Source of the DNA: Escherichia coli
GTDB taxonomy: Bacteria; Pseudomonadota; Gammaproteobacteria; Enterobacterales; Enterobacteriaceae
Assembly (NCBI RefSeq): GCF_003334815.1
Contig: NZ_QOWO01000006.1
Direction: 5' to 3' (one strand)
Length of the DNA stretch: 64,000 bases
Shown here: positions 18,450 through 22,260 of the stretch, in pieces
How the letters are laid out: each line of letters begins with the position of its first letter
Position numbering within the stretch: position 1 is the stretch's first letter
Made by a program: the position numbers and the translations under genes
Notes under the pieces: model-generated
Databases searched by the model: none
Seen by the model: only the letters and a program-made list of their open reading frames with translations
What the model was told of the DNA's origin: nothing

Positions 18450-19400
18450 TTATAGTTTGGCGGCAAGAAGATCTTCCAGTTTGCGTTGATCAACGGCGAA
18501 CAGACGAATGCCTTCAGACAGTTTTTCTACCGCCATCGCATCCTGATTGTGCTCCCAACGGAACTCCGCTTCGCTCATGGGAGCTGGGCGTGGGAACGTC
18601 TGAGAAGGTGGGATTAATTTACGTACCACTGGCGAAACTTTTTCCTGCAGCTCCTTCAGTAAATTCGGTGCGATAGTCAGTCGATCGCAGCCGGTTAAGG
18701 CGAGGATTTGTTCGGTGCGACGGAAGCTCGCGCCCATCACAATGGTTTCATAGTGGTGTTGCTTATAGTAGTCGTAGATATTGCGCACCGATTTAACGCC
18801 CGGATCTTCTTCCACCACATACGGGTCCATCGGCTTGCGTGCCTGATACCAGTCATAAATACGCCCGACAAACGGCGAAATCAGAAAAACGCCTGCTTCC
18901 GCACAGGCCCGTGCCTGTGCAAAAGAAAACAGCAGCGTCAGGTTGCAGTTAATACCTTCTTTTTCCAGCTCTTCTGCCGCGCGAATTCCTTCCCAGGTCG
19001 AAGCCAGCTTGATCAGAATGCGTGATTTCTCAACGCCTTGTTGCTGATACAAGTCCACCAGATGGCGCGCCTTCTCAATACTCTTTTCTTTATCAAAAGA
19101 GAGGCGTGCATCAACTTCTGTTGACACGCGACCGGGTACGATTTTGAGGATTTCAGCACCGAAATTGACCGCCAGTTTGTCACACGCTGCGACCACCTGT
19201 TGTTCCTGGGTCTTGCCATTTTTTTTACCCCAGGCGATAGCATCGTCTATTAAATGCTCATATTGTGATAATCCGGCAGCTTTGAGTAACAGCGAAGGAT
19301 TGGTGGTGGCATCCTGGGGATGATAATGGCGAATGGACTCAATATCGCCGCTGTCTGCCACGACAGTGGTGAACTGTTTGATGCCGTCTAACTCGTTCAT
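18450..19400 (-). CDS. talA: Transaldolase A
   Basis: 316-aa ORF; 19-bp gap to tktB, consistent with a talA-tktB operon. Confidence 0.95.
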
Positions 19401-19688
19401 AGGAAATACTCCTTGAAAAGTAAAGTGTTAGATGAGTGCGTTAATTCACACTTCTGAGAAATTTCGCTAAACGCATCAAAAAAGCATAGCAGACAGGCAT
19501 GGTATTGCTGGATTAAGCAGGTAACATCAGTGTTATAGGATTATTACCAAAACATTATATTAATGGTGAGAGTTTGGACTTGCTCAAAGTCTGTAGACTC
19601 CGGCAGGGTAATAATGTGCGCCACGTTGTGGGCAGGGGCTGTTGCCCACACACTTTATTTGTGAACGTTACGTGAAAGGAACAACCAA

Positions 19689-21968
19689 ATGGATGACCAG
19701 TTAAAACAAAGTGCACTTGATTTCCATGAATTTCCAGTTCCAGGGAAAATCCAGGTTTCTCCAACCAAGCCTCTGGCAACACAGCGCGATCTGGCGCTGG
19801 CCTACTCACCAGGCGTTGCCGCACCTTGTCTTGAAATCGAAAAAGACCCGTTAAAAGCCTACAAATATACCGCCCGCGGTAACCTGGTGGCGGTGATCTC
19901 TAACGGTACGGCGGTGCTGGGGTTAGGCAACATTGGCGCGCTGGCAGGCAAACCGGTGATGGAAGGCAAGGGCGTTCTGTTTAAGAAATTCGCCGGGATT
20001 GATGTATTTGACATTGAAGTTGACGAACTCGACCCGGACAAATTTATTGAAGTTGTCGCCGCGCTCGAACCAACCTTCGGCGGCATCAACCTCGAAGACA
20101 TTAAAGCGCCAGAATGTTTCTATATTGAACAGAAACTGCGCGAGCGGATGAATATTCCGGTATTCCACGACGATCAGCACGGCACGGCAATTATCAGCAC
20201 TGCCGCCATCCTCAACGGCTTGCGCGTGGTGGAGAAAAACATCTCCGACGTGCGGATGGTGGTTTCCGGCGCGGGTGCCGCAGCAATCGCCTGTATGAAC
20301 CTGCTGGTAGCGCTGGGTCTGCAAAAACATAACATCGTGGTTTGCGATTCAAAAGGCGTTATCTATCAGGGCCGTGAGCCAAACATGGCGGAAACCAAAG
20401 CCGCATATGCGGTGGTGGATGACGGCAAACGTACCCTCGATGATGTGATTGAAGGCGCGGATATTTTCCTGGGCTGTTCCGGCCCGAAAGTGCTGACCCA
20501 GGAAATGGTGAAGAAAATGGCTCGTGCGCCAATGATCCTGGCGCTGGCGAACCCGGAACCGGAAATTCTGCCGCCGCTGGCGAAAGAAGTGCGTCCGGAT
20601 GCCATCATTTGCACCGGTCGTTCTGACTATCCGAACCAGGTGAACAACGTCCTGTGCTTCCCGTTCATCTTCCGTGGCGCGCTGGACGTTGGCGCAACCG
20701 CCATCAACGAAGAGATGAAACTGGCGGCGGTACGTGCGATTGCAGAACTCGCCCATGCGGAACAGAGCGAAGTGGTGGCTTCAGCGTATGGCGATCAGGA
20801 TCTGAGCTTTGGTCCGGAATACATCATTCCAAAACCGTTTGATCCGCGCTTGATCGTTAAGATCGCTCCTGCGGTCGCTAAAGCCGCGATGGAGTCGGGC
20901 GTGGCGACTCGTCCGATTGCTGATTTCGACGTCTACATCGACAAGCTGACTGAGTTCGTTTACAAAACCAACCTGTTTATGAAGCCGATTTTCTCCCAGG
21001 CTCGCAAAGCGCCGAAGCGCGTTGTTCTGCCGGAAGGGGAAGAGGCGCGCGTTCTGCATGCCACTCAGGAACTGGTAACGCTGGGACTGGCGAAACCGAT
21101 CCTTATCGGTCGTCCGAACGTGATCGAAATGCGCATTCAGAAACTGGGCTTGCAGATCAAAGCGGGCGTTGATTTTGAGATCGTCAATAACGAATCCGAT
21201 CCGCGCTTTAAAGAGTACTGGACCGAATACTTCCAGATCATGAAGCGTCGCGGCGTCACTCAGGAACAGGCGCAGCGGGCGCTGATCAGTAACCCGACAG
21301 TGATCGGCGCGATCATGGTTCAGCGTGGGGAAGCCGATGCAATGATTTGCGGTACGGTGGGTGATTATCATGAACATTTTAGCGTGGTGAAAAATGTCTT
21401 TGGTTATCGCGATGGCGTTCACACCGCAGGTGCCATGAACGCGCTGCTGCTGCCGAGTGGTAACACCTTTATTGCCGATACATATGTTAATGATGAACCG
21501 GATGCAGAAGAGCTGGCGGAGATCACCTTGATGGCGGCAGAAACTGTCCGTCGTTTTGGTATTGAGCCGCGCGTTGCTTTGTTGTCGCACTCCAACTTTG
21601 GTTCTTCTGACTGCCCGTCGTCGAGCAAAATGCGTCAGGCGCTGGAACTGGTCAGGGAACGTGCACCAGAACTGATGATTGATGGTGAAATGCACGGCGA
21701 TGCAGCGCTGGTGGAAGCGATTCGCAACGACCGTATGCCGGACAGCTCTTTGAAAGGTTCCGCCAATATTCTGGTGATGCCGAACATGGAAGCTGCCCGC
21801 ATTAGTTACAACTTACTGCGTGTTTCCAGCTCGGAAGGTGTGACTGTCGGCCCGGTGCTGATGGGTGTGGCGAAACCGGTTCACGTGTTAACGCCGATCG
21901 CATCGGTGCGTCGTATCGTCAACATGGTGGCGCTGGCCGTGGTAGAAGCGCAAACCCAACCGCTGTAA
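19689..21968 (+). CDS. maeB: NADP-dependent malic enzyme (with C-terminal phosphotransacetylase-like domain)
   Basis: 759-aa [26 protein letters not shown]... Confidence 0.95.
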
Positions 21969-21986
21969 TTTTTTTTAACTCTCACG

Positions 21987-22010
21987 CTTACCCTGAATAT
22001 TCAGGGTAAG
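21987..22010. other. Perfect 24-bp palindrome immediately downstream of maeB
   Basis: CTTACCCTGAATATTCAGGGTAAG is its own reverse complement; preceded by a T8 run. Confidence 0.5.
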
Positions 22011-22260
22011 CAGTTTAGCTGCAATATATTAGTAAAGCTTATTACTGAGTTTGCGAATAATAAAAAAAAGCAGTCTATATAATATCTCGATATTATTTTA
22101 TTTATATTCATGCGTTGCATATGAAAGTTTATGCACCACAGCGAATATCTCTCCATTCTTAGTGATCTACCTCACCTTTTAAACGCGCTTGCCGAATTTT
22201 GTTATTTACTCTGACGAAAAATTGTCACGATACACGAAAGTTTTTCACAGGCGGCGACTC

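Follow-up and report, generated by a model that had tools for sequence, protein, structure and literature searches.

The hairpin described here sits in the divergent spacer between talA and maeB of Escherichia coli, a spacer of about 290 bp within the 64,000-nucleotide stretch of DNA that was analysed and is called the window below. Window positions 19380-19720 are 100% identical to the reverse strand of K-12 MG1655 (NC_000913.3), and coordinates were converted as window position = 2598066 minus MG1655 coordinate. The stretch spanning the hairpin is present in a single copy in 5425 of 5426 complete E. coli genomes. The genes, the hairpin with its tail, and the end of the maeB transcript are placed as follows:

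19400, minus strand: start of talA, divergent from maeB.
19627..19650, plus strand: RNA stem-loop, stem 19627-19634 with 19643-19650 plus a G19635-U19642 wobble, loop GGGCUG.
19651..19661, plus strand: tail CACUUUAUUUG, a U-rich linker whose homologue in other Enterobacteriaceae is the (CAC/CCC)UUUUUGA block.
19689..21968, plus strand: maeB coding sequence, 759 aa, ATG at 19689.
21986..22011, plus strand: maeB 3' terminator hairpin with an 11-bp stem; mapped transcript end at 22016/22017 (SMRT-Cappable-seq TTS 2576049/50).

On the maeB strand the hairpin reads TGTGGGCA (19627-19634), GGGGCTGT and TGCCCACA (19643-19650), followed by CACTTTATTTG at 19651-19661. An earlier sequence-only reading had put an inverted repeat with this tail at 19627-19660, about 40 nt ahead of maeB. 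The sequence bears out both positions and strand, and the distance from the end of the stem to the ATG at 19689 is 38 nt. The G19635-U19642 wobble can give a ninth pair and thereby a 6-nt loop, and five of the nine pairs are G-C. The isolated hairpin has a predicted folding energy of -15.0 kcal/mol (z = -2.06), which 7 of 200 shuffled sequences equalled. In each of the two leaders described below, short and long, its core pairs form with a probability of 0.99; over the whole stem-loop, pair probabilities are 0.75-0.99. In contexts of 56 to 133 nt, total folding energy was no better than that of shuffles (z of -0.3 to -0.5).

Perfect hairpins of this kind (at least 8 bp, loop of 3-10 nt) number 34 in the 64-kb window if nested ones are counted, or about 20 distinct ones, compared with 11 +/- 4 per 64 kb (nested) in first-order Markov sequences. 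From these counts, one such hairpin would be found by chance in about 5% of 290-bp spacers. The hairpin is thus real, yet as a sequence feature only marginally above chance. A dispersed extragenic palindrome of the REP/BIME type was rejected, as the hairpin-spanning 43-mer lies at one site per genome in 5425 genomes (blastn, word size 11). An Rfam 15 covariance-model scan of 19000-20200 at a permissive E-value returned two chance-level matches (E = 8.9), neither of which overlaps the hairpin. The MAEB motif (Weinberg 2007) reportedly belongs to Burkholderia and has no connection with the maeB gene.

The position of the hairpin relative to the maeB promoters could be established from two independent published data sets. 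SMRT-Cappable-seq, in which triphosphate 5' ends are captured on full-length molecules, places the starts of maeB (b2463) in MG1655 at 2578443, 2578498, 2578517, 2578531 and 2578917 and its ends at 2576049/50 (Yan et al. 2018, PMC6131387). In window coordinates these starts correspond to 19623, 19568, 19549, 19535 and 19149, and the end to 22016/7. Modified 5' RACE yielded a single maeB start at 2576520 in v2 coordinates, supported by 611 reads and giving a UTR of 121 nt (Kim et al. 2012, PMC3415461). This is window position 19568, and the promoter sequence printed in that study matches the window exactly. The four starts inside the spacer (19623, 19568, 19549 and 19535) are all purines in the window sequence. 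Since all mapped maeB starts lie upstream of the hairpin, it is located within the maeB leader and on the maeB strand, as the sequence-only reading had held. The elements of the two promoters are:

19556..19568, plus strand: distal promoter, -10 TATATT at 19556-19561, TSS G19568 (MG1655 v3 2578498), giving a 121-nt leader that includes the hairpin.
19569..19593, plus strand: conserved upstream promoter block AGAGTTTGG-N5-CTCAAAGTCTG, identified from the alignment, a motif table and 120 metagenome loci.
19610..19615, plus strand: proximal -10 hexamer AATAAT, its spacing to 19623 read from the sequence, followed by the GC-rich discriminator GTGCGCC.
19623, plus strand: proximal maeB TSS (A), MG1655 2578443, 4 nt 5' of the stem, giving a 66-nt leader.

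The stem-loop consequently occupies +5..+28 on mRNA from the proximal promoter and +60..+83 on mRNA from the distal promoter. In the SMRT-Cappable-seq data, 62 reads begin at 19623, 37 of them ending at the maeB terminator, and 52 begin at 19568 (PMC6131387). Start choice varies with data set and medium, with 19568 seen in Kim et al. and in one SMRT condition, and 19623 and 19535 in the other. The Cappable-seq supplement of 2016 holds no coordinates matching the maeB starts, and the accessible part of the Kim et al. supplement lists no maeB TSS for K. pneumoniae. A sigma-70 consensus scan of 19300-19800 found no promoter; the -35 elements of the mapped promoters are weak.

To compare the promoters across the family, we used 14 enterobacterial genome loci, 120 pattern-recovered metagenome loci, Salmonella, K. 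pneumoniae, and contigs of Kluyvera/Phytobacter. They share one layout, consisting of AGAGTTTGG-N5-YTCAAAGTYTR, a gap of 16 nt, a -10 element (G/A/C)ATA(A/C)T, a GC-rich discriminator and a purine at the equivalent of 19623. The E. coli hexamer AATAAT aligns with GATAAT, GATACT or CATACT in 13 other enterobacterial loci, and Salmonella carries the upstream block in a slightly diverged form. Judged from these alignments, the proximal promoter is the one conserved across the Enterobacteriaceae, with the same spacing. The upstream block contains a palindrome, TTTGG-N6-TCAAA, centred at -42.5.

Further observations concern the same block. It is strongly conserved from Escherichia to Klebsiella, Enterobacter, Leclercia and Citrobacter, and the geometry of its palindrome resembles that of a putative class II site for an activator of the CRP/FNR family. 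On distal transcripts, where the block is itself transcribed, positions 19570-19601 fold into a second hairpin, GAGUUUGGACUU...AAGUCUGUAGACUC, in the centroid structure.

Read as DNA, the inverted repeat is a perfect palindrome of the form 8-N8-8 at +5..+28, just 3' of the start site, and a dimeric repressor bound to it would block the proximal promoter. Transcriptional regulation of maeB, for example its repression by ArcA, would suit such an operator. We nevertheless consider it extremely unlikely: no other genus shares the palindrome, although the promoter is conserved there, 10% of E. coli genomes carry a mutation in one of its half-sites, and inspection against the consensus sequences revealed no match to CRP, FNR, ArcA or sigma-54. 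Two specific candidates were rejected on the same basis, namely a CRP site, for which TGTG-N16-CACA has the wrong spacing, and a sigma-54 promoter, for which TGGGCA-N5-TTGCC has a GG-to-GC spacing one base too long.

The sequence-only reading had raised the possibility that a short transcript ends at the hairpin, or that the hairpin attenuates transcription within the leader. A weak intrinsic terminator or pause at this position would attenuate the distal transcripts (19535-19568) or free a proximal leader RNA of about 40 nt. The stem-loop itself is of a suitable kind, being stable and GC-rich with nine pairs, a 6-nt loop and -15.0 kcal/mol, and a U-rich stretch follows 3 nt on. It is flagged by a lenient terminator scan, which returned 2 sites per 500 bp versus 0.5 +/- 0.7 in shuffles. 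The tail speaks against termination. It reads CAC-UUU-A-UUU-G, so that the U-run begins 3 nt past the stem, outside the 0-2 nt expected of a terminator, and is broken by an A; the tract had rightly been called interrupted from the sequence. Its T-weight is 0.79, compared with 3.69 for an Enterobacter-like orthologue and 5.93 for an ideal tail. The decaying formula of this score reportedly goes back to d'Aubenton-Carafa in 1990.

Two other terminator-like elements lie nearby. The second match of the scan is found at 19345-19372 on the plus strand, antisense within the talA coding sequence, with an 11-pair stem followed by ACTGTTTGAT. The maeB terminator combines a perfect 11-bp hairpin with a poor U-tail, AGUUUAGC, and its mapped end is 5-6 nt past the stem.

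Transcript data document read-through. Full-length capped molecules that started at 19535 and 19568 and ended at the maeB terminator number 21 and 11, respectively (PMC6131387); these molecules cross the hairpin and end 2.4 kb downstream. The upstream-initiated long reads that reach the maeB terminator are only 21 of 62 and 11 of 52, which leaves room for some termination. In the list of Term-seq ends from three growth conditions (LB at OD 0.4 and 2.0, M63 glucose), maeB/talA has neither a 3' end nor a Rho region anywhere in MG1655 2576xxx-2578xxx (Adams et al. 2021, PMC7815308). This list also misses the genuine maeB 3' end and is thus insensitive here, so its silence at the hairpin is weak evidence, and the long-read libraries are blind to products of about 40-95 nt. 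Given this gap and this blindness, partial termination at the hairpin is best regarded as unlikely. The sequence-only reading had named two findings that would speak against it, a lack of transcript 3' ends near the tail and a maeB start downstream of the hairpin; the former agrees with the available list, while no start of the latter kind has been mapped.

Attenuation would further call for a switch in the leader. Folds of the 66-nt and 121-nt leaders contain no antiterminator pairing, the hairpin forming with a probability of about 0.99 without a competitor. The sole upstream ORF, at 19614-19664, is present only on distal transcripts, truncated in Citrobacter and frameshifted in a sister Escherichia lineage, and this lack of conservation argues against a regulatory leader peptide. 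The ORF has 16 codons (ATG 19614, TGA 19664; MCATLWAGAVAHTLYL) with a possible AGGG Shine-Dalgarno, and it spans the hairpin. Known 5'-UTR terminators and attenuators, such as those with premature 3' ends in Adams et al. (2021, PMC7815308), resemble the maeB leader in having a GC-rich stem-loop with U-rich sequence between promoter and start codon. They differ from it in that the maeB U-tract is non-contiguous and interrupted, no 3' end is listed, read-through is documented, and neither an antiterminator nor a conserved leader peptide accompanies the stem-loop.

Comparison with other genera adds to both sides of this question. Leaders of Enterobacter, Leclercia and Kluyvera-like genomes carry a GGGUG...CACCC pairing that directly abuts UUUUU (the tail weight of 3.69 given above), as a terminator would. 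However, these orthologous stems enclose loops of 14-20 nt, atypical of terminators, and the E. coli hairpin itself is missing in the nearest genera. Termination or pausing at the hairpin is accordingly an improbable function. With a weak tail, documented read-through, no listed 3' end and no conservation outside Escherichia, the proposed transcript end or attenuator is not supported; the stem-loop is an ordinary one close to the 5' terminus of the maeB mRNA, with no sign of a transcription stop.

Across the family, the maeB leader falls into two parts. Upstream of the U-rich block, the stretch that follows the start and houses the hairpin in E. coli varies in sequence and length. The 3' part, (CAC/CCC)UUUUUGA-CGAUACGUGAAAGGAA, is conserved throughout. 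Alignments and the Salmonella sequence show the (CAC/CCC)UUUUUGA block in other Enterobacteriaceae even where there is no hairpin, and in folds of the Salmonella, Citrobacter, Enterobacter and Klebsiella leaders its partner is the Shine-Dalgarno AAAGG. In E. coli, the U-rich stretch behind the hairpin belongs to this conserved downstream module and is not the tail of a terminator.

The variable part is missing in some lineages (L113, L166, L008, L011). In two of these, the Enterobacter-like metagenome loci L113 and L166, the whole module is deleted, leaving a leader of about 23 nt that consists of the CGAUACGUAAAAGGAA block only. Where the module is present, many leaders of Klebsiella, Enterobacter, Leclercia and Kluyvera-like genomes form the GGGUG...CACCC pairing at the equivalent place. 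Covariation of this stem amounts to one compensatory change, and 29 of 500 shuffles are as good. The E. coli stem could not be aligned by position outside Escherichia, and RNAalifold on 39 unique leaders gave no consensus structure. The leader 5' segments of other genera are no better than shuffles (median z -0.32), and the K-12-type segment alone in the family clearly exceeds them (z -2.1 to -2.5). Neither the covariation nor the excess stability across relatives that would mark a conserved structured RNA motif was observed.

The orthologous stem-loops expose an unpaired (A/U)CAGGA(U/A) at their apex (K. pneumoniae L209 630-660; metagenome loci L087, L099 and L155, and others). In K. pneumoniae the motif reads GACAGGAUGGUC, which we take to be close to the CsrA SELEX core. 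Together with the Shine-Dalgarno GGA, the orthologous CAGGA may constitute two CsrA-type sites, of which E. coli K-12 appears to have lost the upstream GGA.

The conserved 3' part of the leader carries two putative regulatory sites:

19667..19676, plus strand: predicted Spot 42 pairing site GUUACGUGAA, complementary to Spot 42 nt 44-53 through 9 Watson-Crick pairs and 1 G-U.
19675..19681, plus strand: Shine-Dalgarno AAAGGAA, containing the sole GGA of the short leader and a predicted CsrA site at -13.

Spot 42 nt 44-53 read UUCACGUAAU. The complementary GUUACGUGAA lies inside a near-invariant block, ACGTGAAAGGAA / ACGUGAAAGGAA, just 5' of the Shine-Dalgarno, and the complementarity to Spot 42 is a possible reason for the conservation of ACGUGAAAGGAA. 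A physical interaction of Spot 42 with maeB, and down-regulation of maeB on Spot 42 overexpression, have been reported (cited in PMC8534726), and GUUACGUGAA is a plausible candidate for the pairing site. The pairing statistics are weak, as 62% of shuffles reach 10 contiguous pairs when G-U is allowed, so the site rests on its location, its conservation and the published interaction. An unconstrained RNAduplex calculation of Spot 42 against the leader was discarded, since it gave a meaningless full-length duplex no better than shuffles. The maeB leader resembles the Spot 42 (spf) targets maeA, galK and gltA in its 10-nt complementarity to an unstructured part of Spot 42 just 5' of the Shine-Dalgarno. 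It differs in that the pairing segment lies 17 nt downstream of the hairpin and is not the hairpin itself, and in the weakness of the statistics.

Regulation of maeB by CsrA is documented by a -100..+100 maeB-GFP fusion that CsrA represses, for which sites are predicted at the GGA of the Shine-Dalgarno and around the start codon (Leistra et al. 2018), and by the stabilisation and higher abundance of maeB mRNA in a csrA51 mutant (Esquerre et al. 2016). Papers on SdhX, RpoS-SELEX, EHEC-CRP, glycerol and EttA mention maeB in passing only. The stem-loop and its U-rich linker might be thought of as a platform for a protein: a CsrA hairpin that has decayed, or a site at which Hfq aids Spot 42 pairing. 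In a MAFFT alignment, the E. coli apex GCAGGGGC lies opposite the conserved (A/U)CAGGA that is unpaired in the orthologous stem-loops, the leader is CsrA-repressed, the Spot 42 site follows 17 nt downstream, and the B2 allele G19632A creates a GGA. However, the K-12 loop GGGGCUGU exposes no GGA of the kind seen in CsrA-binding hairpins, the published CsrA model places the sites at the Shine-Dalgarno and start codon, away from the hairpin, and a role of Hfq would be pure inference. Such a platform is an unlikely explanation. Leaders of the glgC type, likewise CsrA-repressed with a GGA at the Shine-Dalgarno, are matched by maeB in these respects and by the apical CAGGA of its orthologues; the GGA-free K-12 loop sets maeB apart from them, and contact of CsrA with the hairpin is only hypothetical.

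A related and very unlikely interpretation is that the hairpin is what remains in Escherichia of an ancestral enterobacterial attenuator, now decayed, that CsrA controlled. If this were true, CsrA binding at the exposed CAGGA could decide whether the terminator-like stem (GGGUG...CACCC followed by U5) forms. Elongation into maeB would then be coupled to Csr, and in E. coli the distal transcripts could be subject to promoter-specific attenuation.

Variation within the species was assessed with the 43-mer 19620-19662 in the 5426 complete E. coli genomes. The main alleles are:

K-12 type, 43-mer 19620-19662: 4256 genomes (78% keep the perfect stem).
G19632A, an A-C mismatch in the stem: 558 of 5426 genomes (about 10%), including Nissle 1917 and the type strain ATCC 11775.
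C19653A, in the tail: 561 genomes.

G19632A about halves the stability of the hairpin, from -15.0 to -8.2 kcal/mol, and two rare natural stem variants, C19646T and C19633T, retain pairing as G-U. A sister Escherichia lineage with 91% nucleotide identity in maeB has the repeat with the same A-C mismatch (-7.0 kcal/mol). In Salmonella and Citrobacter, the nearest genera sampled, no comparable hairpin was found past the homologous start, and whole-leader energies were -5.3 to -6.9 kcal/mol. The hairpin is thus Escherichia-specific, single-copy and polymorphic within E. coli. Given the allele survey and the mismatch shared with the sister lineage, the perfect K-12-type stem looks derived and probably arose within E. 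coli from a mismatched ancestral version.

This distribution bears on a neutral origin, in which the inverted repeat would be a chance product of the fast-evolving part of the leader that folds and has no measurable effect on maeB. It is a realistic possibility, although we hold it below even odds. The restriction to Escherichia, a stem-breaking and probably ancestral allele at about 10%, a chance expectation of about 0.05 per spacer, the unremarkable 5' segments of other genera (median z -0.32) and the deletion of the module in some lineages are all in line with neutrality. It is less readily reconciled with the z of -2.1 to -2.5 for the K-12-type segment, with the perfect stem kept in 78% of genomes and two rare variants that save pairing through wobble, and with the position of the stem only 4 nt from the primary 5' end. 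Structure close to the primary 5' end usually matters for mRNA decay.

By analogy with ompA hp1, we tentatively favour, at a probability of roughly 0.4, a lineage-specific 5'-proximal mRNA stem-loop that acts as a mild stabiliser or insulator. The polymerase starts at 19623, or in other conditions at 19568, 19549 and 19535, and transcribes through the repeat. In the predicted fold, the first 28 nt of the short-leader mRNA consist of four unpaired nucleotides (ACGU, which stay 85% unpaired) and the 9-bp hairpin, and the remainder carries the conserved parts of the leader, that is, the U-rich linker, the Spot 42-complementary site and the Shine-Dalgarno GGA predicted for CsrA. With the hairpin in place, the transcript of the proximal promoter would be less exposed to 5'-end-dependent attack by RppH and RNase E, and its G-rich 5' segment would be unavailable for pairing with the single-stranded regulatory region. 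Such an effect, acquired within Escherichia, would tune mRNA stability modestly and would not be essential.

Several observations are consistent with a stabilising stem-loop. The stem starts 4 nt from the primary capped 5' end at 19623, which does not apply to 19568, 19549 and 19535; it forms with a probability of about 0.99 in both leaders, in a 5' segment with a z of -2.1 to -2.5; C19646T and C19633T keep the pairing, and the proximal promoter is conserved. Published work adds the regulated stability of maeB mRNA (csrA51), the repression by CsrA and the interaction with Spot 42 (PMC8534726 for Spot 42). Other observations weigh against a stabiliser, namely G19632A in 558 of 5426 genomes with the same mismatch in the sister lineage, the lack of the hairpin in Salmonella and Citrobacter, the deletion of the module in Enterobacter-like lineages and the chance expectation of about 5%. 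In addition, work of the Belasco laboratory is reported to have found that protection tolerates at most four unpaired 5' nucleotides, a number already sufficient for RppH, which counts against protection here.

The model for this comparison, hp1 of the ompA 5' UTR, is a 5'-terminal stabilising stem-loop reportedly described by Emory, Bouvet and Belasco in 1992. The maeB leader resembles it in having a stable hairpin a few nucleotides from the primary 5' end, followed by A/U-rich single strand and the ribosome-binding site, and in belonging to an mRNA of regulated stability that an Hfq-dependent sRNA targets. It differs in its four unpaired 5' nucleotides, in being internal on distal transcripts, and in being confined to Escherichia and polymorphic within E. 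coli.

As a whole, the maeB stem-loop is an ordinary one, one more 5'-UTR stem-loop in a well-studied genome. The hairpin alone matters little, and its reading as a terminator can be dropped. The anatomy of the maeB leader is now fixed, with two promoter classes, a 66-nt leader from the conserved promoter, a variable 5' module that carries the hairpin in E. coli, and, downstream of the hairpin, a conserved 3' module made up of the Spot 42 and the CsrA/Shine-Dalgarno sites. This anatomy is useful for maeB reporters and for engineering of the malic-enzyme node. It also reveals that published -100..+100 maeB 'UTR' constructs contain promoter DNA.
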